A stretch of 64,000 nucleotides of DNA, taken from IMG/VR virus record IMGVR_UViG_3300046001_007123. One strand, written 5' to 3'. Under the pieces are notes generated by a model. The model saw only the letters and a program-made list of their open reading frames with translations. It was not told the DNA's origin and made no database searches. This DNA is from a virus. Of the stretch, positions 6,459 to 44,666 are shown in pieces (position 1 is the first letter of the stretch; every line of letters begins with the position of its first letter). The position numbers and the translations under genes were made by a program.

Positions 6459-7721
6459 ATGATTAACCCAACAGGAAATAAATTAGAAAAAATTTTATTC
6501 GAGATCTTCGATAAATCTATCGAAAACGCCGATATATATAACCATAACAAAAGTTTATGGTTAATCTTTACCAATGATATGAAGTGGGTTGTTGAATACA
6601 CGGACACACAAACTCTGTGGTATAACTACCAATTCTTTAAGAATGAAATGGAACTTGTTGGTTTAGATTGTGTTACAAACAAAGACCTTATCCAAAAGTG
6701 GTTTGAAACAAGATTCCTTAAACCTAAGGTTGAAAAAACCATCCAGGATGGGGTAAAACACACCTTTTATCCAAATCGTGGTCAATGGGAAGGTGTTGAA
6801 GACACTATTCAAAATTGGGTGAAACACACCCATTTTTCTTTAAACCTATTAGACCCATCGTATCGTGTTGAAGACGCCATTAAAAATGGGGTGAAGAACA
6901 CCGGAAGAAATTATCACTATACGAGAACAGTTGAAGATACCATTCAAAATGGGGTGAAACACACCCATTTTTCTTTCAAAAAGGTCAACACAATAATTGA
7001 AGACACTATTCAAAATGGGGTGAAACACACCATACAACACGATCAAGATGTCCTTTTGTTGGTTGAAGATACCATTCAAAATGGTGTGAAACAAACTAAA
7101 GGTACTCTACGACATCCGGCATTCGTTGAAGATGCGGTTCAAAATGGAGTTATACATACGCAAGAAATTGATTGGAACCGTGATATCGGACTGGTTAAAG
7201 ACACCATTAAAAATGGGGTGAAAGACACCCAACGTGCTTTTGGTGAAAACAAATTACAAGTTGAAGACACCATTCAAAATGGGGTAAAGCACACATCATT
7301 AAAGCGTTTAGATCCATCGTATCGTGTTGAAGACGCCATTAAAAATGGTGTTAAAGAAGTGAAAGAAGTAAGTGAACTTAGTTTAGTAAGTGAAATATTT
7401 AAGGTTAATAGTAAAAGGGTAATTCAAAATGGGGTGAAGGAGACCACAACCAACAGATACCATCGTCGTAAGGAAGTTGAAGATACCATTGAAAATGGGG
7501 TGAAAAAAACTTCAGATAGACCTTTGGGGATAGAACTTGAGTGCATTAACGACATTATCCAAAATGGAGTGAAGTCCGTCTGTTTTGCTTATAATTGTGG
7601 CGATAATAGTGTTGAGGATATTATTGAAAATGGGGTGAAGTACGTTGATTTTGCTTTTGATCTTGGTTATTATGGTGATACTACGGTTGAGGATATTATT
7701 GAAAATGGTGAAAAAATATAG
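6459..7721 (+). CDS. tandem-repeat protein A (about 15 copies of [VI]EDTIQNGVK[HDE]T with 3-8-aa linkers)
   Basis: 90-aa N-terminal domain followed by imperfect tandem repeats. The DNA period is 48-57 nt. Confidence 0.6.
   Translation: MINPTGNKLEKILFEIFDKSIENADIYNHNKSLWLIFTNDMKWVVEYTDTQTLWYNYQFFKNEMELVGLDCVTNKDLIQKWFETRFLKPKVEKTIQDGVKHTFYPNRGQWEGVEDTIQNWVKHTHFSLNLLDPSYRVEDAIKNGVKNTGRNYHYTRTVEDTIQNGVKHTHFSFKKVNTIIEDTIQNGVKHTIQHDQDVLLLVEDTIQNGVKQTKGTLRHPAFVEDAVQNGVIHTQEIDWNRDIGLVKDTIKNGVKDTQRAFGENKLQVEDTIQNGVKHTSLKRLDPSYRVEDAIKNGVKEVKEVSELSLVSEIFKVNSKRVIQNGVKETTTNRYHRRKEVEDTIENGVKKTSDRPLGIELECINDIIQNGVKSVCFAYNCGDNSVEDIIENGVKYVDFAFDLGYYGDTTVEDIIENGEKI
6720..7718 (+). repeat. in-frame tandem coding repeats (unit about GTTGAAGATACCATTCAAAATGGGGTGAAACACACC)
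   Basis: The repeat unit is directly visible in the DNA. Third positions vary between copies. Confidence 0.7.
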
Positions 7722-30606: not shown

Positions 30607-31164
30607 ATGAATTTAATTACATTTATAATACCATCGATTAATAGACCCACAATAGACAATACAATCCAATCCTTACTTAATCAAACTAACCCAAATTGGA
30701 GTTGTTTTGTTCTTTACGACGGAGTTGTCGGGAAAGAATTTAATGACCCAAGAATACGAACATTCAACATAGAAAAGTTAGGAGTAAAGGGGGAAAGACA
30801 CGGAAATGCTGGGTTAGTTAGAAATGAAGGGATTAAAATGTGTGAAACAGAATGGATTGGATTCTTAGATGATGATGATACAATACACGAAGATTATGTT
30901 AAAACACTTGTAGAAAAATACTTACAATATGATTTTGTTGTTTGGAGAATGAAAACAACCGACGGTAAGATATTTCCCGAACTTTCAAGAAACAATCTTA
31001 TTAGAAACCGAGTTGGTATATCAATATCGTTTAAGACTACAATACCTAATATGTTATTCGACACTAATGACGATGGTGAAGATTTTGAGTTTGTCGATAA
31101 ATTACAAAATACCACGAACAATTTTATAATTGCACCTGAGATCTATTATAACATTAGACACTAA
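30607..31164 (+). CDS. glycosyltransferase family 2 (GT-A fold)
   Basis: IIPSINRPTIDNTIQSLLNQT...GFLDDDDTIHEDY (DxD motif). Confidence 0.7.
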   Translation: MNLITFIIPSINRPTIDNTIQSLLNQTNPNWSCFVLYDGVVGKEFNDPRIRTFNIEKLGVKGERHGNAGLVRNEGIKMCETEWIGFLDDDDTIHEDYVKTLVEKYLQYDFVVWRMKTTDGKIFPELSRNNLIRNRVGISISFKTTIPNMLFDTNDDGEDFEFVDKLQNTTNNFIIAPEIYYNIRH

Positions 31165-31214
31165 AAACAATTTATTAAAATTAATTTTTTCCTATAGTTA
31201 TAATAAAAAAAGAT

Positions 31215-31961
31215 ATGGGAATGCCTTTAATTGAACAAAACGCTGGTTATGCTTTAGGTAATTTTATAATGTTAACACCAGGGATAAAAAGGTTATCGGA
31301 AAAGGTAGGTCATAAAATAGATGTTTTTTTCACAATACCTTACGTTAAAGATTGTTTTATTGATTGTGATTTTATGAATCACGTAGGTAAATTACGAAGA
31401 GAACCAACGTTCTCCTCAAAAATGATTAATCTAAATGTTCCAGATTACGAATACACATTTGAATTAATGGTTGGTGAAAAATGGACTGACAAATACCACA
31501 CATATGTTGATCCCGCAATTGAAATACCAAAGAATAACGGAGATTATTTATTGTTATTAAATGGTTTGGGTGGGTTATCACTTAACGATAATGATCCGAA
31601 ACCAAAATGGTACGGAAAGAAGGAAGTACCTGAAGAGATATACGACCTAATAAAAGAAAATAGTAACTTACCAATTTATTTCACGGGATCGGAATCAGAT
31701 ATGAAACAAAATCCTTGGATGGAAAAGATATGTGATAGAATTGAAATTGGTGATATCCGAAAATCATTATCATTAGTGAGAGATGCTAAAAAGATTATTT
31801 CTAACGATACTGGATTAGCACATTGTGCTGGTGCAATGAATAAAGATCTCTTAATACTTTGGAAAGATACTCCATTTATAAAAAATCAAAACCCCGGTAA
31901 AAATACAAGATACTCCCAAAAAGAAAGTTGGATAAAAGATATTAATGAATACTTAAGTTAA
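31215..31961 (+). CDS. GT9-like glycosyltransferase (heptosyltransferase fold)
   Basis: ISNDTGLAHCAGAMNKDLLILW resembles the GT9 NDSGxMHLAAA motif. Confidence 0.5.
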   Translation: MGMPLIEQNAGYALGNFIMLTPGIKRLSEKVGHKIDVFFTIPYVKDCFIDCDFMNHVGKLRREPTFSSKMINLNVPDYEYTFELMVGEKWTDKYHTYVDPAIEIPKNNGDYLLLLNGLGGLSLNDNDPKPKWYGKKEVPEEIYDLIKENSNLPIYFTGSESDMKQNPWMEKICDRIEIGDIRKSLSLVRDAKKIISNDTGLAHCAGAMNKDLLILWKDTPFIKNQNPGKNTRYSQKESWIKDINEYLS

Positions 31962-32581
31962 TGCACATTATAACATTTTACGATAAAAAGATAAAACCAT
32001 TAGTTGTTGATTTACAACAAAAAGTTTTTAATAAATATGGTTTCACAATTAACCAAATTATGGTTGAGAATTGGACAACACACGGAGATGCGGTTGACAA
32101 TTATTTGAAAGACATATATGACCCTGAAGAGATAATTGTTTTATTTGACATTGATGCAATACCATTAAATAAAAAAATAATACCACTTGCAGTTGAATGG
32201 GCTAAAAATAACGTTGGATTATTTGGTAATGCTCAAGTGGCTTCTAAATTAAAACCACCACATAACAAATTTATTTTTGCGGCACCATCATTCTTAGTTT
32301 TTAGTATAAGAACATATAATGAGTTAGGGAGACCATCCTTCAATACGACTAACAGATCGGATTGTGCTGGAGAACTTTCTCACATTGCGACGGAAAATGA
32401 GATGTCAATTAATTTATTATTTCCTAATCACGCTGAAATACCAAATGTTAAACTTGATGAGAATCATAGTTTTGGGTATGGAACAACATATGGTAACAAT
32501 ACGTACCACGCATTTGAATCTAGGTTCGGTAAAAAAGATGTATTCTTTATTAATAAATGTAATTCAATATTAGGGGTATGA
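31961..32581 (+). CDS. hypothetical protein (possible glycosyltransferase accessory)
   Basis: 206-aa ORF inside the GT cluster. It contains a DxD-like LFDIDAIP. Confidence 0.4.
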   Translation: MHIITFYDKKIKPLVVDLQQKVFNKYGFTINQIMVENWTTHGDAVDNYLKDIYDPEEIIVLFDIDAIPLNKKIIPLAVEWAKNNVGLFGNAQVASKLKPPHNKFIFAAPSFLVFSIRTYNELGRPSFNTTNRSDCAGELSHIATENEMSINLLFPNHAEIPNVKLDENHSFGYGTTYGNNTYHAFESRFGKKDVFFINKCNSILGV

Positions 32582-33276
32582 TTATGGAATATGATTTTTG
32601 TGTTTTAATTACAACCTACAATAGATCGGAGATGCTTTATAAGTTATTGGACGATATTGATCGTAATAAAAAAGATTATAAAATATTAGTTGCGGTCTTT
32701 GATGATGGGTCGACTGAAAAAATAGATTTGTCAGGAAGAGATGTTATTAAAATAGGTATGTTTCCAAATATGGGTAAGAAGAAATATTACGTTACATACA
32801 ACGCAACCTTTAGTTTTGTTAAAAACGTAAATTCAAAGTATTTTATTTATTTACCTGACGATATTTCTTTAGTAGATAACTTTTTTGATGAAACCAAAAG
32901 ATTATACGAATCGATAGACTCGACTAAAAAAATATGTTTAAGTATATTAACTGACGATAGGGTTAATAAATCACATTGGGGTTATAAAAACCCAAAAGAT
33001 TTAGGTGAGGTTTTGCGGACACAATGGAATGACCTATGTTTCATATGTGAGAAGAATTTCTTTGAATTACTTGATTATAGGGTTAATGCGATTAGCGAAA
33101 AAAGATGGATTAATGATCCGCTAATAAGTTCTGGTGTTGGTCATCAAATCACCCAAAGACTTAATAGTAGTGGTAAATTTTTGTATCACGTAAAAAAATC
33201 ATTAGTGTATCACGGAGTTCACGAATCCAAAATGAATAAAAACGAAAGAAAAAAGAATAATTTAATCACAATATGA
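32578..33276 (+). CDS. glycosyltransferase family 2
   Basis: FCVLITTYNRSEMLYKLLDDI...VFDDGS. Confidence 0.65.
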   Translation: MIMEYDFCVLITTYNRSEMLYKLLDDIDRNKKDYKILVAVFDDGSTEKIDLSGRDVIKIGMFPNMGKKKYYVTYNATFSFVKNVNSKYFIYLPDDISLVDNFFDETKRLYESIDSTKKICLSILTDDRVNKSHWGYKNPKDLGEVLRTQWNDLCFICEKNFFELLDYRVNAISEKRWINDPLISSGVGHQITQRLNSSGKFLYHVKKSLVYHGVHESKMNKNERKKNNLITI

Positions 33277-34175
33277 GTGAAAAAAGAATAGTTAGTGTTG
33301 CGTCTTACAAAAGAATAGATAGTTTGGTTAAAACAATCGATTCAATTTATGATCAGTGTGATGAGATTAATATATTTTTAAATGATCACGAAGGGGAAAT
33401 TCCCCCTCAATTTTTAGATGAAAAAATAAACTTATATTTTTCCGATAATAGGTATGGGGACGCACTAAAGTTTGCAAAATTAATTGATTCGGACGGTTAT
33501 TACCTTACAATAGATGACGACTTAATTTACCCACCAAACTACGTTGACCATATGATCACAAGGTGTAAAGAGTTTTCAAATAAGAGGGTTATAACCCTAC
33601 ACGGAAGAAAGTTTTCTAAAGAACCAATAAAATCATTTTATAGTTCTTACATTGAATTTTATCATTGTCTTAGACATCAAAAAAGAGACGCGTTTATACA
33701 TTTTGGAGGCACTGGTGTTATGTGTTTTCATACAAGTTTAATGAAAATACCAATCACATATTTTGAACATCCAAATATGGCAGACGTATGGGTTGGTAAG
33801 TATTGTATTGAAAATAATATTGAAGTATTATCAATTGCTCACGAGAAAGATTTCTTGACATACCAACCACAAACAACAACGATATTTGATACTCATTCTA
33901 ACTCAGATACAATACAAACAAAAATAGTAAATGATTTGTTTAACCCAAGTAAGGAGGTAAACGTGGTAATAGAAACACCACCTATTCATACTAAAATAGA
34001 AAAAACTATAGAAAAGAGCCAAAAAACTTTAAATTATGAAATGGTAAACAAAATATTTGGGAACCAACACCACTCCACGCCCAAATCGATTAAACCCGTC
34101 CAAACCCAACAAACAAGACCTTCAGGTAATGTCCATATGTTAAGTAAAATAATGGGTAAAAAAAGAGGTAGATGA
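33273..34175 (+). CDS. GT-A-like glycosyltransferase
   Basis: SVASYKRIDSLVKTIDSIYDQ... followed by TIDDDLIYP. Confidence 0.55.
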   Translation: MSEKRIVSVASYKRIDSLVKTIDSIYDQCDEINIFLNDHEGEIPPQFLDEKINLYFSDNRYGDALKFAKLIDSDGYYLTIDDDLIYPPNYVDHMITRCKEFSNKRVITLHGRKFSKEPIKSFYSSYIEFYHCLRHQKRDAFIHFGGTGVMCFHTSLMKIPITYFEHPNMADVWVGKYCIENNIEVLSIAHEKDFLTYQPQTTTIFDTHSNSDTIQTKIVNDLFNPSKEVNVVIETPPIHTKIEKTIEKSQKTLNYEMVNKIFGNQHHSTPKSIKPVQTQQTRPSGNVHMLSKIMGKKRGR

Positions 34176-35131
34176 GTTTAAGTGTAATTATACCTACATA
34201 TGATAATGTGGATTTTTTGGATGAACTATTCGACTCAATTAAAAAAAATCAAGCTAACTTCCCCTTTGAGGTTTTAGTAGGTATTGATAATTGCGAAAAA
34301 ACAAAAGAATATATTAAAGATAAAACCTTCCCACCTAATTTCTTCTTTTTTTTCTTTTTGGAAAATGTTGGACCATATAAGATAAAAAATACTTTGTCTG
34401 AAATATCAAAATATGATAATTTATTTTTCTTTGATTCCGATGATGTTATGACGGAAAGTTGTTTATCTGAATTAAATAGTTTGACCTTAAAATATGAATG
34501 TGTCAAACCCAAATTTATAAACTTTAGAGATAATAATTTTGGTAGGGATTATAAAGACGAAAAGGGGCTTTACGGGGAAGGAGTATTCGCAATAAGAAAG
34601 AACTTATTTCTTGCAATGAATGGATTTGAGGGTTGGAGATGTGCTGCTGATTCGGATTTTATGGGTAGATTATATAGGATGAAAAGAAAAATTAATTTAA
34701 CAAGTAATATATTATTTCATAGACGACTACACCCAAAAAGTTTAACATTAAGTAATGAAACGGGGTATGCCTCCCAAATACGAGGTAAATATTTTAGAAT
34801 GTCAAAAAATAAAACTAATTTCGGTCCATTGACGATATTAGAGAAGGCTGACTACCAAATGTTGGATAATACTACGATTGAGTGGTCAGAATCAATTTCT
34901 GTGATAGAACAAAATGAAGTTGATCTGATAAAAGATCTAAAAGATAAGAAGCACCGATTATTAGAAACAATCTTCCAAAACCTACCAAAAGAAGTTAAAC
35001 CAAAAGAAGTTAAGGTGATTGATTATAATAGGGTGAATCAGAATAGTAATACCCAAACAACGAATACTTTAAATAATGCCCTGAAAAAGGCCAAATTAGA
35101 AAACCTCAAAAAAAATTATGGAAGAAGATAG
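34172..35131 (+). CDS. glycosyltransferase family 2 with internal poly-T tract
   Basis: LSVIIPTYDNVDFLDELFDSIKKNQ...FFDSDDVM. Codons 57-63 are FFFFFFL, encoded by TTCTTCTTTTTTTTCTTTTTG. Confidence 0.65.
   Translation: MSLSVIIPTYDNVDFLDELFDSIKKNQANFPFEVLVGIDNCEKTKEYIKDKTFPPNFFFFFFLENVGPYKIKNTLSEISKYDNLFFFDSDDVMTESCLSELNSLTLKYECVKPKFINFRDNNFGRDYKDEKGLYGEGVFAIRKNLFLAMNGFEGWRCAADSDFMGRLYRMKRKINLTSNILFHRRLHPKSLTLSNETGYASQIRGKYFRMSKNKTNFGPLTILEKADYQMLDNTTIEWSESISVIEQNEVDLIKDLKDKKHRLLETIFQNLPKEVKPKEVKVIDYNRVNQNSNTQTTNTLNNALKKAKLENLKKNYGRR
34340..34360 (+). repeat. T-rich homopolymeric tract (including T8) inside the GT2 CDS
   Basis: ttcttcttttttttctttttg. A possible slipped-strand site. Confidence 0.6.
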
Positions 35132-37722: not shown

Positions 37723-37751
37723 TATAATTTTCGTACAACACAAAACTATAA

Positions 37752-37782
37752 AATCCCTACATAATTGTGGGGATTTTTCTTT
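37752..37782 (+). terminator. rho-independent terminator (AAATCCCTAC-loop-GTGGGGATTTTT)
   Basis: GC stem plus T-run. Belongs to the ATCC..GGGGAT terminator type. Confidence 0.65.
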
Positions 37783-37802: not shown

Positions 37803-39344
37803 ATGAAAAGTTTAATTAAAAAAGTATTACAGGAAGAGGTTAAAGGTATTTTAACTGAAAGTGGTATAAGAAACATACGTGAATTAGCAAAGAGATACCC
37901 AATGGCTAAAATTTACTTTCACCAAGATTTGGATGGAGTAACTACGGCTTTAGCGATGAAAAACTATTTGGAACAACACGGGATCAAAGTTGTTGATGCT
38001 GAGATAATCCAATATGGGGACAAAGAGTTTGCGATTAAGAAACAAGATGCTTCAGGTGATATAATGCCAGTACTTGTTGATTTTGCTCACGGAAAACCAA
38101 TGTTTGTTATTCATACAGATCACCACGATACTCAAGCGGGTGTTGAAAAAGGAACCTCAACAAACTTTAAACCATCAAGATCAAACGTTGAGACGATCTC
38201 TCAAACAATTTCACCAAAGGATATCTTCACCAAAGATGATATTGAGTTAATTTCAATGGTGGATTCGGCTGACTACGCAAAGAATGATATCACACCAGAA
38301 CAGGTAATGAATTATTTGTATAAGTTCGATAGAGAAAAATCAGTAGGTCAAAACAAAAAACTATTAGGTTTGATTACAAACAAACTTCTTTTAGCATTTA
38401 AAAACAAACCTAATTTCTTAAGAGATATTGTTATGAATGCTAAACCATCTTTAATGAGTATGTTATTAAACATTAAAGATCAGATGAAAACAAAAGGGTA
38501 TGCTAGTATTGAGAACTTAGAAAAAAACAAAGAAGATTATGTTAGGTCTCAGAAAATGAATCCAAACGTCGATCTTCAAGATAAAGTAATCGTTCAATAT
38601 GGTGGTGGTAATATGATGAGACCTGGATCATATGATCGATTTACTCCATTTAGAAATAATCCTGAAGCTGACTTCTTGGTAATTGCTTGGCCAATGGGAA
38701 TGGTTCAGGCATCTTGTAATCCATTTAAGAAAGAAAGAGCACTTAAAGGTGTTAACTTAGGTGAGGTTAAAGATGAGGTCTTAGGTAAATGGGAATCTCA
38801 ATTAAGAGAAAAAATGATTCCATTATCAACAATAAAGTGGGTATCTGAATCAGGAAAAGATTTCGGAGGAGAGTCAGTTGGATTTACATTCAAAGATTTT
38901 ATGGCACTTTATGGTGATAAATTCGATGGATCAAAAACAAGTGAAAAATCTTTAGAGGTTATCAAAAAAGCAATGGATACACCATTCAAGGAATTATCCG
39001 AAAAAGAAATGGACTTAATGGATTCTATACAAGTTAGCGCTTGGGATTTAATAAATGCTAATAGTGGTGGACACAAATGTATTACAAACATATCGGCATT
39101 GAATTACTTTGGTCGTGGAAAAAGACCACCAAAAGGAAAATATAGTTACGATGCAAATGCTGAAGATTCGGCATATGTTAAGTTTACGAAGATGATCCAA
39201 CGTGAGTTTGCAAGAGTTCTTAAAGAAAAGATTGCAAAAGCTGGTGACGAAAGATATGAACCTGAGTATGAGATTGATGTTAACGAATCGGTTAGAATTA
39301 CCAAATCAAAAATCAAATCAAAACCTTATAAAATCAACAGATAA
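37803..39344 (+). CDS. DHH/DHHA1 phosphoesterase with family-2 N-terminal module
   Basis: N-terminus MKSLIKKVLQEEVKGILTES. DHH motifs HQDLDGVTTALAM, VDFAHG, IHTDHHD. C-terminal GGH (DHHA1-like). Confidence 0.7.
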   Translation: MKSLIKKVLQEEVKGILTESGIRNIRELAKRYPMAKIYFHQDLDGVTTALAMKNYLEQHGIKVVDAEIIQYGDKEFAIKKQDASGDIMPVLVDFAHGKPMFVIHTDHHDTQAGVEKGTSTNFKPSRSNVETISQTISPKDIFTKDDIELISMVDSADYAKNDITPEQVMNYLYKFDREKSVGQNKKLLGLITNKLLLAFKNKPNFLRDIVMNAKPSLMSMLLNIKDQMKTKGYASIENLEKNKEDYVRSQKMNPNVDLQDKVIVQYGGGNMMRPGSYDRFTPFRNNPEADFLVIAWPMGMVQASCNPFKKERALKGVNLGEVKDEVLGKWESQLREKMIPLSTIKWVSESGKDFGGESVGFTFKDFMALYGDKFDGSKTSEKSLEVIKKAMDTPFKELSEKEMDLMDSIQVSAWDLINANSGGHKCITNISALNYFGRGKRPPKGKYSYDANAEDSAYVKFTKMIQREFARVLKEKIAKAGDERYEPEYEIDVNESVRITKSKIKSKPYKINR

Positions 39345-39648: not shown

Positions 39649-39677
39649 ATAACTATCTTTAAGGATATTTATTTATA

Positions 39678-40319
39678 ATGAAACAACTCATCAGACATAT
39701 ATTAAAAGAAGAAGTTAATCGAAAATATTCTAAACCTACACCAAAGGTAGAACAACTTGTTTATAGATGGTTAAATGATTATTTTAATGGTGCTCAAATG
39801 TACCACAACAAATCGTGGGAATCAACACATAGTTTTGAATTTTGTAATCACGGAAAAGAAATATTACATATTACTTTATATTTTAATGTTGATTATAGTG
39901 TTTATGATGATAAAAGAAAAACCGAAGAAAGAGATCTTGAGCGAGGTTACCTAACAGTTCCAAAAAATGTATTTGAAGAGTTATCGTTAGATATTCCTGT
40001 AAGGGCAAGTTATTTAAAATACCTTTTTGAAGAATGGTTTGACGATACTTATTTAGGTGAAATTCAAAAGTTTATGGGTAGAAATGATATCTATATTGAT
40101 GAATTTGATGTTACTGGTAGAGACGCTGAAACTTGCGTACCACCAGTAACAAAACCTGAAGATGTGAGTGATGAGGATATGATACAATATATTCTTAAAA
40201 CCACACTTTTTAAAAAAGATGATATATTAAAATATGAAAATGAAGAACCAGGTTGGATTGAAAAAACTTATTTAGAAAAACTTCGCGGTGATGAAATGGA
40301 AAGATTAAGAGGACAATGA
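39678..40319 (+). CDS. family-2 member (MKQLIRHILKEEVNRK)
   Basis: First of five consecutive paralogs. Stop and start codons overlap. Confidence 0.55.
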   Translation: MKQLIRHILKEEVNRKYSKPTPKVEQLVYRWLNDYFNGAQMYHNKSWESTHSFEFCNHGKEILHITLYFNVDYSVYDDKRKTEERDLERGYLTVPKNVFEELSLDIPVRASYLKYLFEEWFDDTYLGEIQKFMGRNDIYIDEFDVTGRDAETCVPPVTKPEDVSDEDMIQYILKTTLFKKDDILKYENEEPGWIEKTYLEKLRGDEMERLRGQ

Positions 40320-40822
40320 GAGAACTAATAAGAAAAATATTAAATGAAAGTATAGTCAAGGATCAAGTTAAACAATTGATTGATGATGAAGGTCTTGCAG
40401 GTGCTATAGAATATATTGGTGGTGCCGATAATTTAATTAAGATCTTATATAATGGTGATATAATGAAATACTACGAAGAAACGGGATTCCGACCGATAAG
40501 ATTAACTATAGATCCCAATTTATATATTGATGATCTAATTGTTCAAAAGTTAAATTTACCATCAATTAGGTTTTCAGGTCAAGATATGAAAGATTTAGGT
40601 GAGTTTAGTTGGACAACTAATGGTCATACTTATAAGTTTAATGCTCAATTGATACCAAGGGATCTTTACTCAGGTCAAAAAATATGGAGAGTTGTTGGTC
40701 AATCAGGTGATTATGGATTTGGTTATTCATTTATTACTAAAAGAAATACATTAGGTAAAAGGGCAAGAACACAAATATACAACCAAATAATAGATAAATA
40801 CGATTTACAAGAGTACCTGTGA
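40316..40822 (+). CDS. family-2 member (MRELIRKILNESIVKD)
   Basis: ATGA junction. Confidence 0.55.
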   Translation: MRELIRKILNESIVKDQVKQLIDDEGLAGAIEYIGGADNLIKILYNGDIMKYYEETGFRPIRLTIDPNLYIDDLIVQKLNLPSIRFSGQDMKDLGEFSWTTNGHTYKFNAQLIPRDLYSGQKIWRVVGQSGDYGFGYSFITKRNTLGKRARTQIYNQIIDKYDLQEYL

Positions 40823-41664
40823 GAGAACTAATTAGACATATCTTAAAAGAACAATCGAATAAACTTAAGTTATTAAAAGTAATTCAAAATGAAGGTATTT
40901 TTAGTGCCGCTGAACTTGTCGGTGGACTAAATAACCTTAAAAGAGTATTCAAAGATAACAAGGCAATAATTGATAGAATTGAATCTCTTAAAGGTAAAGT
41001 CACCTTTGGTTATGATGGAATCGATTTCCCGTTCAACTTTGATATCATTGGAATGAAGGCAAACAAGTGGAATACTAATTTTTGGCCAATAGTTAATGTT
41101 ACTTATGACAATAGTGAATTAACTGAGGAGGAAGATAACTTGGTTAAACGTTTTATTATTGAAGGACAAGATAGTCCATATAATGTTTCTTTAGATAAAA
41201 ATTACGAAAAAATTAGGTTCAACACACCTAATTATATTACTATTAAGGAAATAAATGGTGAAAATGCTGATCAAATTGATTTCCCTATAGTACCATTTAC
41301 AGATCCATTTGATGAAATGTTACAATTAAGAAGTAAGTTATATAAAAAAACATCTCTTTACGAAAGTGTTGAGGACACACAGAAAAACGTAATCAATTTT
41401 CTTATGAGAAGATATGAAGTTGAGGATAAAGATTTGGGTTGGGGTGAAGATAATTTACCGATGAGGTTAGTTAAATTCGACGTTAACGGACAAACCTACG
41501 TTATCACAAGTTTCGACACAAAAAGAAAACAGATAAATGAGATACTTTATATGTTAATCGAAAATAATATAATCGAGAGACCGTTTGAAAACTTTAACGA
41601 AAACGATCCGTATAGACAAAAAATAGTTAGAACAATTAAAATGTTTTTGAATAAAGTAATGTAA
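40819..41664 (+). CDS. family-2 member (GTG start; MRELIRHILKEQSNK)
   Basis: GTGA junction with the upstream stop. Confidence 0.5.
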   Translation: MRELIRHILKEQSNKLKLLKVIQNEGIFSAAELVGGLNNLKRVFKDNKAIIDRIESLKGKVTFGYDGIDFPFNFDIIGMKANKWNTNFWPIVNVTYDNSELTEEEDNLVKRFIIEGQDSPYNVSLDKNYEKIRFNTPNYITIKEINGENADQIDFPIVPFTDPFDEMLQLRSKLYKKTSLYESVEDTQKNVINFLMRRYEVEDKDLGWGEDNLPMRLVKFDVNGQTYVITSFDTKRKQINEILYMLIENNIIERPFENFNENDPYRQKIVRTIKMFLNKVM

Positions 41665-42113
41665 TGAAAGAATTAATTAGACATATATTAAAAGAGGAGG
41701 TTAACAATAGTAAAAACATTACTAAAGGTATTAATCTTGCGGTTAAATTACTATCCAAAAAATATCCATTCATTGTTGGATGGAAATTGGCTAACGAATT
41801 AAATGATTATACATATACTATTTATGTGAACTTACTTGTAGATTTCCCAAAAGTTAAAGAATATTATGGACTTGAGACAAATAAAGTATATTTAAGATCT
41901 CCCGAATTTATTTATGACTCAGGACACGGAAAACCTTACCCTTTCTCTGCTTTGGATTATGATAAAGTATTTGATGACCCATTTTTTATTAATAAAGAGT
42001 TAGTGAATAATTTTTCTGACATATATAATGATTTACCTGATAGTTTAAAAATGGAACGTGGTGACGACAAATATAAAGATATAAATGTGGATAGTTATTT
42101 TTATGTCAAATGA
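41664..42113 (+). CDS. family-2 member (MKELIRHILKEEVNNSK)
   Basis: TAATG junction. Confidence 0.55.
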   Translation: MKELIRHILKEEVNNSKNITKGINLAVKLLSKKYPFIVGWKLANELNDYTYTIYVNLLVDFPKVKEYYGLETNKVYLRSPEFIYDSGHGKPYPFSALDYDKVFDDPFFINKELVNNFSDIYNDLPDSLKMERGDDKYKDINVDSYFYVK

Positions 42114-43756
42114 AAAAATTACTTAATAAAATAATACAGGATTTTATTTTACCTGAATACAAACACGTAATATGTGATATTGAGGTTAAAGATCCAAATG
42201 AAAGATTTGATACCTTGGGAGGAACTCCATTTAAATCACCAAGTGTTACTATAACATTTATTGGTGGTCGAGGAACAAAACTTTGGCCCGTTACTCAAGG
42301 GATTCAGAAAATGTATGATGACGTAATGGATGAGGTTTGGCATACCATATATGATTATACTGAAACTGCTGTCGACATCTATAGCAACACCACAAAAGAT
42401 TGTGGGAAAGAAAACATTTACCTTAAAGAACATATTAAAAAAGTTTTAAAAGAAGAAACACAAAAAATTAAAAAAAGAGCTCCATTGGAAAAGGCCGTTA
42501 CAACTTTTATTGAATCGTTGTTGGAAGATTATGATCTACCTGAAAATTTTAAAGGAGTCGCTGTTGATATTGTTGATGGTGGTAAAGAATGTCATATTAC
42601 AGGACTATTCGAGAATAGTTTTAATCAAAATGATTCTAATAAACTATTTTCAGTCTTCAATAAAATAAAGAAAGAAATACCAAATTATTTTGGAGACCAA
42701 TTTGATTACGTAACAACTGGTAACTCAACCATAAATAATTATAACGATCATCAGTGGTGGTATGATAAGAAAAAATCAATTAATGAATCAAAATTCTTTC
42801 GTAGAAGAATTGATATGGTCCTGATGGACAAAGAATTCTATGAGTATTTAAATATCGTTACCAGTCTTTCTTTAGAAAGGATTCTTAATAATGTTGAATT
42901 TAATTTTAATGATTTCAACGACGGAGTTATAACTCACCTTATAGATGCTTACTATATGGATTTATCCGATAATAGATCAAACAAAGTACCTTATGATGAA
43001 ATTTATGACTTCCTGTCAAAATATTATTACGATAAGATCAAAGATAGGTATGATAGTTTGTTTACCCAAAACATCAATGAACTTTTTAATCGAAAAGACA
43101 TTAGAAGAAGAACATCTGAATTTAACGAGGAGAACATCATACGATTGATTAAAAAGGAAATGAGTGAAACAGACCCGAACGATTATTCGGATGAGTATGA
43201 TTATGCTTCCGACATAATAAGTTGGGTTATTCCACATTTTTATCCATATAATGAATACGACCCAAAGTATGAGGACACATATGAGGAGATTGATGATTTT
43301 ATGAAGATGGAATACGGAGGAATGATATTTGATTACTTCAATGAAATTAATCCTGATATTAACGATTTAAATGAATCGGAAAACAAAAAGTATGGATTAC
43401 TTAGACCAATAGAAGAGAATGGTTTATTTCAGGTAATGCAAGACACAGGACTATCTCTTCAACAAATCATATCAAAGACAGGTGAACTACCAAGAGAAGT
43501 ATTAGAGAGATACATTAGGGACTTTATAAATGAGGAAGGATATCATCAGACAAAAGGAGATGTAACGATAGAATTTTCAATAGAATTAGATAAAGATAAA
43601 AGTGCCGATTCATTTTATTTGTCGGGAGATAAGGTTACGGTAGAAGTAAATGAGTATGGTAAGTATGGTATGCAAATAAATGGATTTATAGAAAGACTAT
43701 CAAACTTCACTGATAAAGAAATTTATATGGTAGTTAAAGGTATGATTAATTGGTGA
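42110..43756 (+). CDS. family-2-related large protein with an internal second copy of the module (LKEHIKKVLKEETQKIKK at about aa 105)
   Basis: 548 aa. The N-terminus MKKLLNKIIQDFILPEY plus the internal module suggest a fusion of two family members. Confidence 0.5.
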   Translation: MKKLLNKIIQDFILPEYKHVICDIEVKDPNERFDTLGGTPFKSPSVTITFIGGRGTKLWPVTQGIQKMYDDVMDEVWHTIYDYTETAVDIYSNTTKDCGKENIYLKEHIKKVLKEETQKIKKRAPLEKAVTTFIESLLEDYDLPENFKGVAVDIVDGGKECHITGLFENSFNQNDSNKLFSVFNKIKKEIPNYFGDQFDYVTTGNSTINNYNDHQWWYDKKKSINESKFFRRRIDMVLMDKEFYEYLNIVTSLSLERILNNVEFNFNDFNDGVITHLIDAYYMDLSDNRSNKVPYDEIYDFLSKYYYDKIKDRYDSLFTQNINELFNRKDIRRRTSEFNEENIIRLIKKEMSETDPNDYSDEYDYASDIISWVIPHFYPYNEYDPKYEDTYEEIDDFMKMEYGGMIFDYFNEINPDINDLNESENKKYGLLRPIEENGLFQVMQDTGLSLQQIISKTGELPREVLERYIRDFINEEGYHQTKGDVTIEFSIELDKDKSADSFYLSGDKVTVEVNEYGKYGMQINGFIERLSNFTDKEIYMVVKGMINW

Positions 43757-43879: not shown

Positions 43880-44485
43880 ATGGAAGGATATATCTATTTG
43901 GGTGAATACTATGATGTTCTCGGAAGAGAACTCGACACAACCGACAAGAAGATCGGGAAAACAATCTCTTTAACTCAAAGAGAGTATCAACTTAACAGAA
44001 CAAAATCTCCAATAGGATATAAGATTATCTCTGCGTATATGGTAGACGATATGGATAAGGTGGAAAAACTATTACACGCCATCCTCGATAGTCGAAGATT
44101 GGTTGGGGAGTGGTTTAAAGATGATGAGGACACATTAACAGGTGAGTTCATCAACTTTATGAATATCTATGGGGCTACCACTATGGATATGAAACAACTC
44201 AAAGAAGAACAAATCTCATTAAGTGGTGATGAAAGATTAGTGAAGATCGCCGACTCATTTGGTAAAGATACGATGTTGATCCGAACATACAAAGGAATCG
44301 ACTACGACGTACTATTAGATTCAAAAGGAATATTACACTTCAACGGAGAAACCTTTGACACTCCAAATAAGTTCTACAATAGTGGTTTACTTAAGTTCTT
44401 AACTGGTAAACGAGGTAATAGTGGTACCAATCAGGTAACTCAATTTAAAGTTAAGGAAACGAAGGAATCACTAAGAGAATTATAA
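43880..44485 (+). CDS. T5orf172 (GIY-YIG-like) domain protein
   Basis: GYIYLGEYYD...KKIGKTISLTQREYQLNRTKSPIGYKII...VEKLLHAILDSRRLVGEWF follows the T5orf172 pattern (GxVYI..KIG.T....R...L....P.....E..LH..F...R..GEWF). Confidence 0.65.
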   Translation: MEGYIYLGEYYDVLGRELDTTDKKIGKTISLTQREYQLNRTKSPIGYKIISAYMVDDMDKVEKLLHAILDSRRLVGEWFKDDEDTLTGEFINFMNIYGATTMDMKQLKEEQISLSGDERLVKIADSFGKDTMLIRTYKGIDYDVLLDSKGILHFNGETFDTPNKFYNSGLLKFLTGKRGNSGTNQVTQFKVKETKESLREL

Positions 44486-44612: not shown

Positions 44613-44614
44613 CA

Positions 44615-44650
44615 TAAAAATCCTTCACAATGGTGGGGGATTTTTATTTT
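44615..44650 (+). terminator. rho-independent terminator (ATCCTTCAC-loop-GTGGGGGAT, T-run)
   Basis: Follows element A directly. The next ATG is at 44667. Confidence 0.6.
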
Positions 44651-44666
44651 AGTATATTTATTAGAT

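Follow-up and report, generated by a model that had tools for sequence, protein, structure and literature searches.

Unrelated protein modules organised by a shared N-terminal leader and a short junction motif in a large uncultured phage

In phage T4, the internal proteins as well as gp24 and Alt are directed to the prohead by N-terminal propeptides of 10-20 residues, which gp21 then removes, and the cleavage sites of Alt are ITE-6 and LTE-619 (PMC5694885). The internal proteins of T-even phages have only the targeting sequence in common (PMC3012670), and diverged paralogs of phage SPN3US carry identical N-termini (PMC5694885). In the polyvalent proteins, 2-15 disparate domains are combined in varying arrangements, and these chains are predicted to be delivered together with the DNA and freed by embedded zincin-like peptidases (PMC5512222). 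Here, we analysed a stretch of 64,000 nucleotides of viral DNA (IMG/VR record IMGVR_UViG_3300046001_007123, hereafter the window), which has a G+C content of about 30-35% and is part of metagenomic contigs of 81-121 kb, and within it a row of five overlapping genes at positions 39678-43756 (genes are named by their first position). We describe with high confidence a set of unrelated protein modules organised by two short peptide signals, an N-terminal leader and a junction motif. This system is not described in the literature searched, where nothing relevant to the motifs was found, and it overlaps the known T4-type propeptides, polyvalent proteins and polyproteins.

A search of 5.8 billion proteins with the product of gene 42110 returned 146 relatives, most of which cover about 20-35% of the query and lie inside proteins of 300-950 residues; the exceptions are near-identical (94-100%) copies or fragments and a few collinear multi-module proteins. 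The homologue coverage falls into five blocks (residues 1-104, 117-~190, 227-322, 325-~410 and 423-548), which correspond to the modules M1 to M5 (Table 1). AlphaFold, run with two partial alignments, gave compact domains with low-confidence linkers between them (predicted template modelling score, pTM, 0.42-0.44). The predicted local distance difference test (pLDDT) was below 50 at residues 103-123, 322-337 and 417-427; the homologue coverage falls in the first of these stretches and drops from 32 to 11 at residue 325. The predicted structures, a check that a first-pass annotation of the window had proposed, differ in fold: M1 and M2 are alpha/beta, M3 and M4 all-helical and M5 mixed. M1 has 79 homologous segments, which take many different positions within other proteins and in every case follow [LIM]-N-E-[SA]. 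M5, with 65 homologous segments, is the usual C-terminal module of these chains; since only 66 clusters match it among 1.84 billion representatives, nearly always C-terminally, the system is lineage-specific. Judged by homologue coverage and predicted structure, 42110 is a chain of five independent modules with one fossil leader.

The first-pass annotation had read this protein as carrying its module twice, with a second copy of the starting motif inside. The internal copy LKEHIKKVLKEE is present at residues 105-116 as stated, but it is the single leader copy in a chain of five modules, not the start of a second half. It is a scar of gene fusion, as had been suggested, and no chance match, since the rare true internal leader copies in homologues always stand directly after a junction, as this one does. 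The start of the protein itself, MKKLLNKIIQDF, is the first helix of M1; in homologues this helix is preceded by a junction or a true leader, and only M-K-x-L and two aliphatic positions are common to MKKLLNKIIQDF and the other starts. The statement that all five genes start with the motif holds for four of them and fails for 42110.

The leader is an amphipathic peptide of 12-14 residues, M-[KR]-x-L-I-[RK]-x-[IV]-L-[KRN]-E-[ESQ] (MNLQExIRRVLKEE in sister genes), and was found at the start of 98 of the 120 distinct homologues. The junction was read by anchoring the homologues on fixed positions of M1, M3 and M5 and taking the residues upstream. The four positions immediately upstream of a module read [LIM]-[NQKRTY]-E-[SA], regardless of which module comes before it; a module that opens its protein follows a leader instead (for example MNLKEHIRRILKEEVNES or MKELIRAILKES), and a leader like the latter also heads those M3 homologues that do not begin after ..NES. 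The junction, [L/I/M]-x-E-[S/A], is mostly LNES, INES or MNES, tetrapeptides over-represented 40-80 times in these proteins, and the leader ends in the same motif (LKE|E, LNE|S, LKE|Q, ITE|S or LTE|S). Long relatives contain 6-8 modules, each ending in ..h-N-E with the next starting in S-[EK]. Among open reading frames (ORFs), 20% have [LI]xE[SEAG] in residues 3-22, compared with 4.5% of internal 20-residue windows. The rule is thus one leader per polypeptide, at the N-terminus, and one junction per added module, in front of it.

Two other explanations of the junction were rejected. Reading 'NES' as an N-glycosylation sequon (N-x-S) does not suit the approximately 40% of junctions lacking Asn, nor those with Ala for Ser, and the motif is unfit for an intein or a 2A-like self-cleavage. 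The predicted secondary structures of M1 and M2 follow the same order, and a very distant relationship among some modules is therefore possible. A pair of Cys residues recurs in many modules, with one member in the first strand (..VCDIKV.., ..HVICG..) and the other 5-9 residues before the junction (..PNCEWSP-LNES, ..ENCEDEVKF-LNES, ..KDCGKENIY-L[KR]E); it suggests that these modules have an alpha-beta-beta-alpha-beta architecture in common, or else a disulfide or a metal site.

The five genes had been taken for paralogs, and their alignment does not bear this out. In an all-against-all BLASTP the similarity was confined to the first 13-17 residues, with the exception of 40316 and 40819 (and 48821), which are alike over about 45 residues. 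Profiles of twelve segments were built from all collected homologues and compared by hhalign: 40316(13-50) and 40819(13-50) matched at 97% probability, the sub-module of 40819(13-50) matched the start of M5 at 65%, and each remaining pair of bodies stayed below 5%. Searches of Pfam and PHROGs with the five proteins gave no family, and the same databases gave none for the other leader-bearing proteins apart from a lysozyme and a DHH-like protein. Among 50,697 phage records, megablast and tblastn found nothing related to the locus, to 40819 or to 42110, so that this collection has no cultured relative, and a structural comparison of the modules gave no significant neighbours. Each window gene has orthologues of its own, 35-59% identical, in relatives that differ in gene order and fusion state. 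Because these orthologues are fused and split in other arrangements, the pattern is unlike tandem duplication and fits a pool of autonomous modules. On these comparisons the five genes encode a series of distinct modules, every one of which has separate orthologues in related phages, and the tandem-paralog reading is wrong. The motif does stand where an autonomous unit begins, as the first-pass annotation had argued. Homologous modules occur both stand-alone and fused.

The rearrangements were followed in two syntenic loci. Their contigs measure 317,792 and 241,097 bp, and each locus contains, in this order, a lysozyme, an unknown gene, YceI, the DHH-like protein, a small reverse gene and a variable cluster; the DHH-like protein 37803 anchors the synteny with loci L004 and L005. 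Three further IMG/VR contigs of 128-281 kb contain the same modules in other arrangements. Orthologues of 39678 are stand-alone in L010 (59% identity) and L011, and internal in a 410-residue protein of L005 (185-394) and a 655-residue protein of L004 (265-479); the C-terminal part of the latter (488-655) is the orthologue of 40316. Orthologues of 41664 are stand-alone in L005, L010 and L011, and in P0033 a 41664 homologue (residues 185-324) is fused behind the N-terminal half of a 40819 homologue (40819 residues 1-152). For 40819 there are 39 homologues: the full-length ones are 37-44% identical, and others retain just the N-terminal 54-73%, after which different modules follow; ..LNES.. stands in homologues in place of ..LYES... 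M1 and M5 are the C-terminal modules of quite different chains in relatives. The sequence comparisons show that modules are exchanged, split and fused exactly at the leader and junction signals among related phages, and that in other phages the place of the five genes is taken by one to three longer ORFs. The 42110 homologue of a strain with 95% identity (P0045) runs on for 213 further residues, and therefore the mobile T5orf172/MUG113 gene may have truncated the chain here. This gene stands directly after 42110 in the window and after the 40819 homologue in L004 (11284-11889).

The five ORFs and their overlaps, in order ATGA, GTGA, TAATG and ATGA, are as the first-pass annotation gave them. 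The GTG start of 40819 is supported by its homologues, which begin at the same peptide MRELIRHILKE with ATG and in one case again with GTG. A strict 9-residue pattern of the motif matched six times in the six-frame translation of the window, in all cases on the plus strand and 6-20 codons downstream of a stop, and is therefore tied to gene starts and not due to chance. Only one TATTTAT box precedes the five genes, and since the next terminator-like hairpin is at 44614-44647, co-transcription is plausible; we infer one transcription unit from the box at 39666 to this hairpin, which comprises the five genes and the T5orf172/MUG113 gene. That part of the earlier operon claim stands, while an origin by tandem duplication is unsupported. 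In the window, TATTTAT-N2-8-ATG was counted 25 times compared with 6.9 expected, mostly at plus-strand gene starts. The boxes are often preceded by a G-rich hairpin and a T-run (e.g. 37750-37777, 44614-44647); together they resemble cassettes of a terminator and a promoter that leave hardly any 5' leader, in the manner of T4-type PeSL.

The leader is not restricted to the five genes. Its patterns pick 23 of the 547 candidate starts in the window, all of which are real gene starts on the plus strand; as the match of 42110 is marginal and comes from a loosened pattern, at least 22 genes bear a leader. The variants are MKELIRHILKEE, MNLQExI.., MKIIITESQ and MKKIxKLTES. Classes other than that of the five genes head unrelated proteins (MKIIITESQ.., MKKIxKLTESDLxxIV.. 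and MNLQExIRRVLKEE / MNLQENIQRIREMMG), and all of them contain [LI]-x-E-[S/E]. The leader-bearing proteins include the phage lysozyme 35541 (Pfam 1.7e-18) and the DHH-like 37803 (Pfam 6.6e-4, below the cut-off), and both are plausible as injected cargo. Relatives include a P-loop kinase-like protein with a leader and chains fused to a MazG or DUF2237 domain.

Homologues of the DHH-like protein were found only in uncultured phages of 635-735 kb. These genomes form the Mahaphage clade, which has predicted Bacteroidetes hosts and includes the Lak phages. Lak phages have been grouped with T4-related jumbo phages (PMC7824862). The host of the large uncultured phage studied here is probably a member of the Bacteroidota. 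Two of the Mahaphage genomes, LR756502.1 (L007; 642 kb) and LR745206.1 (L008; 635 kb), have many genes that open with another recurrent peptide, MK[HY][LI]Kx[FY]ExF. Such start peptides include MKHLKKFESY, MRHIKSYKIFESS and MKYIKLFEAFEES and often end in ..[IL]-[NK]-E-[ESG]; since a start peptide recurs in these phages too, shared N-terminal leaders seem to be a general trait of these huge phages.

By analogy with T4, the junction would be a protease recognition site, cut after Glu, and the leader a removable propeptide addressing the polypeptide to the place of cutting, most likely the prohead; we regard this proposal as evenly poised between right and wrong. The modules would be released as separate small acidic proteins and enter the host with the DNA, which would extend the logic of the T4 capsid-targeting sequences (CTS) and of gp21 cleavage at [L/I]-x-E to polyproteins. 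Delivery by the leader to a Glu-specific protease, combined with cutting at the junctions, would explain the one-leader rule, the flexible, exposed junctions, the free order and the harmlessness of splitting and fusing. Both the junction and the leader end agree with the substrate motif of the T4 prohead protease. The T4 record has comparable sites in gp24 (MAKINELLRE|S), gp23 (..FLTE|AEIGG), gp22 (MLKEQLIAE|A) and Alt (MELITE|L).

Several points weigh against this proposal. T4 gp21 found no homologue by tblastn in the window or any fetched locus, and T4 gp18-gp24 found no match in about 180 kb of LR756502.1 and LR745206.1, which are distant relatives; the protease searches covered the window, the fetched loci and this Mahaphage DNA, and the structural region of the present genome lies outside them. 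For a set of capsid cargo the leader genes are very numerous: the 64 kb contain at least 22, and in L010 about every second ORF has a leader. The proteins are acidic (isoelectric points 4.1-6.6), in contrast to the basic internal proteins of T4, and Asn is usual before the junction Glu, a preference not described for gp21. There are also two other protease candidates. The ClpP-like gene 13423-14148 stands outside a head-gene context and has homologues near the DHH gene in Mahaphage loci; by its matches it is a candidate processing enzyme. The second is an HExxH module (FLLFLIFHEITHQYQFKKYG), C-terminal in 22 related chains, whose SprT-like match (E = 0.0067) is below the Pfam cut-off. It is always last in chains of 528-932 residues or forms a stand-alone leader-bearing gene, none was found in the window and loci, and it is a possible in-chain peptidase.

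The best-surviving alternative, which we think doubtful, is that the chains stay intact, with the junction as a flexible linker or helix cap and the leader as a docking or assembly helix or a stability tag. The predicted flexibility of the linkers and independence of the domains agree with it, as does the lack of any protease tied to the system within the DNA searched, and the generic alpha-beta-beta-alpha-beta topology of many modules is like that of ring-building and protein-binding domains (weak Foldseek matches). However, a passive linker needs no near-invariant Glu-Ser after Leu, Ile or Met before unrelated modules and is not expected at the N-terminus of stand-alone genes, and the free order and splitting argue that the modules need no connection.

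It is improbable that the conserved feature lies at the nucleotide level, be it a mobile cassette for promotion or initiation of translation or a hotspot of recombination (compare PeSL), with the peptide as a by-product. A TATTTAT box, often after a terminator hairpin, does stand directly upstream of many leader genes, the leader codons are A/T-rich, and module shuffling occurs at leader and junction sites. Against this, genes 40316, 40819 and 41664 carry the leader without the box, which lies 3-8 nt ahead of unit-initial genes, and overlap the preceding stop, and the junction is conserved in frame within long ORFs. Among 24 aligned leader copies the first Leu was encoded by CTC, CTA, CTG, TTA or TTG and the final Ser by AGT, TCG or TCT, so that the synonymous codons vary freely, across both Leu and both Ser codon families. 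Selection is thus on the peptide, as shown by this variation and by the leaders of coupled genes that lack a promoter box.

We give very little weight to the leader being an N-terminal degron or tag for timed removal by a phage ClpP-like protease and a host unfoldase. The ClpP-family gene of the window, with its homologues near the DHH gene in related huge phages, would suit it, but internal junctions and the one-leader rule with free fusion are left unexplained, and this gene has its best matches in 'head maturation protease' families, which fits processing equally well. The leader is not known to match a described ClpX N-motif. Tandem paralogs that preserved the N-terminus while their bodies became unrecognisable as relatives are largely refuted and most improbable, because the shared leader, the common strand, the overlapping stop and start codons, the M1/M2 likeness and some 35 further residues shared by 40316 and 40819 are set against bodies without sequence or profile similarity, differing predicted folds (M5 combining helices and a sheet) and orthologues in other orders and fusion states.

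Returning to processing and targeting, we tentatively extend the proposal to a genome-wide peptide address code in huge phages of Bacteroidota, with Glu-specific cutting of leader and junction sites and with dozens of varied, freely shuffled effector modules carried and injected by a single virion, an extension that is on balance unlikely. The leader classes behind it are MKELIRHILKEE/MNLQEHIRRVLKEE, MKIIITESQ and MKKIxKLTESDL, and MK[HY]LKxFExF in the Mahaphages of 635-642 kb. If such a code existed, leaders would tag a quarter to half of the accessory proteins, enzymes included, and the injected repertoire would be by far the largest known in a phage and built from polyproteins.

The features of the window and of its relatives are collected in Table 1. 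Further genes of the window and its surroundings were also recorded. Directly upstream of the lysozyme-YceI-DHH block, 5-6 glycosyltransferase-like genes (30607-35131; labelled from Glycos_transf_2 matches on homologous loci) are kept in L004 and L005. Just upstream of the window start, the contig DNA (L013/L014, 1-3826) contains genes for a TonB-dependent receptor (853 aa), a Por_Secre_tail (T9SS) protein and an SprB-like protein, and within the window there are several signal peptides of the lipoprotein type and, from 62390 on, a PKD/CHU_C protein; these cell-surface genes hint at an unusual phage content or at a contig that is partly cellular. True tandem paralogs are present at 6459-7721 and 7725-8918 (43% identity, E = 3e-73), each with about 10 copies of a repeat of about 20-30 residues with the core (V/I)EDTIQNGVK(H/D)T and no family match.

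Table 1. Coordinates of the five genes, their modules and signals, and of other features of the window and related loci
Feature	Position	Strand	Properties
Gene 1	39678-40319	+	213 aa; leader MKQLIRHILKEE at 39678-39713, then body A
Gene 2	40316-40822	+	168 aa; leader MRELIRKILNES, helical sub-module of ~35 aa (EGLAGAIEYIGGADNL), body B
Gene 3	40819-41664	+	281 aa, GTG start; leader (V/M)RELIRHILKEQ, sub-module, C1, LYES, C2
LYES junction in gene 40819	41356-41367 (residues 180-183)	+	between bodies C1 and C2
Gene 4	41664-42113	+	149 aa; leader MKELIRHILKEE, then body D
Gene 5	42110-43756	+	548 aa; starts MKKLLNKIIQDF; five modules
M1	42110-42421 (residues 1-104)	+	leaderless; predicted alpha-beta-beta-alpha-beta; pLDDT 75-88
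Internal leader copy LKEHIKKVLKEE	42422-42457 (residues 105-116)	+	fusion scar, flexible linker
M2	42458-42778 (residues 117-223)	+	predicted alpha-beta-beta-alpha-beta; 16-44 homologous segments; pLDDT 60-73
Junction INES	42779-42790 (residues 224-227)	+	M3 homologues begin directly after ..NES
M3	42788-43072 (residues 227-321)	+	predicted all-helical; 31 homologous segments; pLDDT 77-95
Degenerate junction INE|L	43073-43084 (residues 322-325)	+	NINES at this place in homologues
M4	43082-43366 (residues 325-419)	+	predicted helical; 8-12 homologous segments; pLDDT ~80
Junction LNES	43367-43378 (residues 420-423)	+	conserved in 40+ homologues
M5	43376-43753 (residues 423-548)	+	predicted four helices, four-stranded sheet, final helix; pLDDT 88-96
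T5orf172/MUG113 gene	43880-44485	+	leaderless; Pfam PF13455 2.3e-10, PF10544 3.9e-8; inside the same putative transcription unit
Promoter-like TATTTAT box	39666-39672	+	5 nt upstream of the 39678 ATG; sole box before the five genes
Terminator-like hairpin and T-run	44614-44647	+	closes the putative unit; next TATTTAT box at 44655
TATTTAT boxes	1741, 27444, 35530, 37791, 39666, 44655, 48451	+	2-8 nt before ATG
Further TATTTAT boxes	53414, 53904, 54774, 55524, 57935, 58590, 59373	+	
DHH-family-like protein	37803-39344	+	513 aa; leader MKSLIKKVLQEE; second ..ILTES.. site
ClpP-family gene	13423-14148		Pfam CLP_protease 1.7e-53; best PHROG 'head maturation protease' 3e-35
Genes with other leader classes, first group	29044, 29592, 29963, 30297, 35541, 53427, 54303, 54787, 57947		
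Genes with other leader classes, second group	1752, 56198, 59803, 60657		
Genes with other leader classes, third group	44667, 48462, 48821, 53915, 37803		
HExxH module carriers	P0051-P0067, P0091, P0101-P0107, P0120; L010 12551-13150		

Even without cleavage, the rule of one leader and one junction per added module marks domain boundaries in hundreds of unannotated metagenomic proteins. If the signals do serve processing or targeting, they would give a sequence rule for the delivered or processed proteins of huge phages and for their mature ends, and DNA phages would have polyproteins under a fixed cleavage code. Harmless gain, loss, splitting and fusion of modules would then allow a fast turnover of host-takeover or anti-defence proteins, and the leader could serve as a packaging tag in the way of the T4 CTS.

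Among the described systems, the T4 CTS (on IPI-III, Alt and gp24, with gp21 as the protease) is like the leader in being an N-terminal peptide, of about 6-20 residues, that is shared by otherwise unrelated, fast-evolving accessory proteins in hypervariable loci and that ends in Leu/Ile-x-Glu followed by a small residue; both of these features were found here. MELITE|L of Alt and MAKINELLRE|S of gp24 may be set beside MKIIITE|S and MRELIRKILNE|S found here. The CTS sequence MKTYQEFIAE differs from the leader, the CTS stands on a handful of genes whereas the leader stands on dozens, and unlike in T4 the site is reused internally, with up to 7-8 modules per polyprotein. The T4 system also has the protease gp21, whereas for the one described here, which was read from sequence, no gp21 homologue was found in the DNA searched, and its proteins are acidic.

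The propeptide-bearing inner-head and ejection paralogs of phiKZ and SPN3US (protease gp175/gp245, motif S/A/G-x-E) are likewise from large phages with many head-internal proteins, N-termini kept between diverged proteins and multiple cuts after Glu in a three-residue motif. Unlike the leader, their propeptides are mostly longer than 100 residues and stand on true paralog families; a small residue lies two positions before Glu where Leu or Ile lies here, and no homology was detected. Polyvalent proteins (Iyer et al. 2017) are similar in being combinatorial multi-domain phage chains: 42110 has five disparate modules and its relatives up to 7-8 in varying order. The HExxH module that ends 22 relatives has a zincin-like match below the Pfam cut-off. 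The present modules differ in matching none of the described domains and no Pfam family, in sharing a fixed junction tetrapeptide and a common leader, both of which polyvalent proteins lack, and in occurring mostly also as stand-alone genes.

Polyproteins of eukaryotic RNA viruses and African swine fever virus (ASFV) resemble the chains in having functional units separated by short conserved protease sites, which are putative here; the present system belongs to a DNA phage, the order of its units is free, units often form genes of their own, and the DNA searched yielded no dedicated protease. In the T4-type PeSL cassettes, the conserved element is a non-coding promoter with a stem-loop flanking a shuffled ORF, whereas here it is coding, occurs on genes without a promoter box and varies at synonymous sites; PeSL-like promoter/terminator cassettes do stand beside the unit-initial genes of the window.

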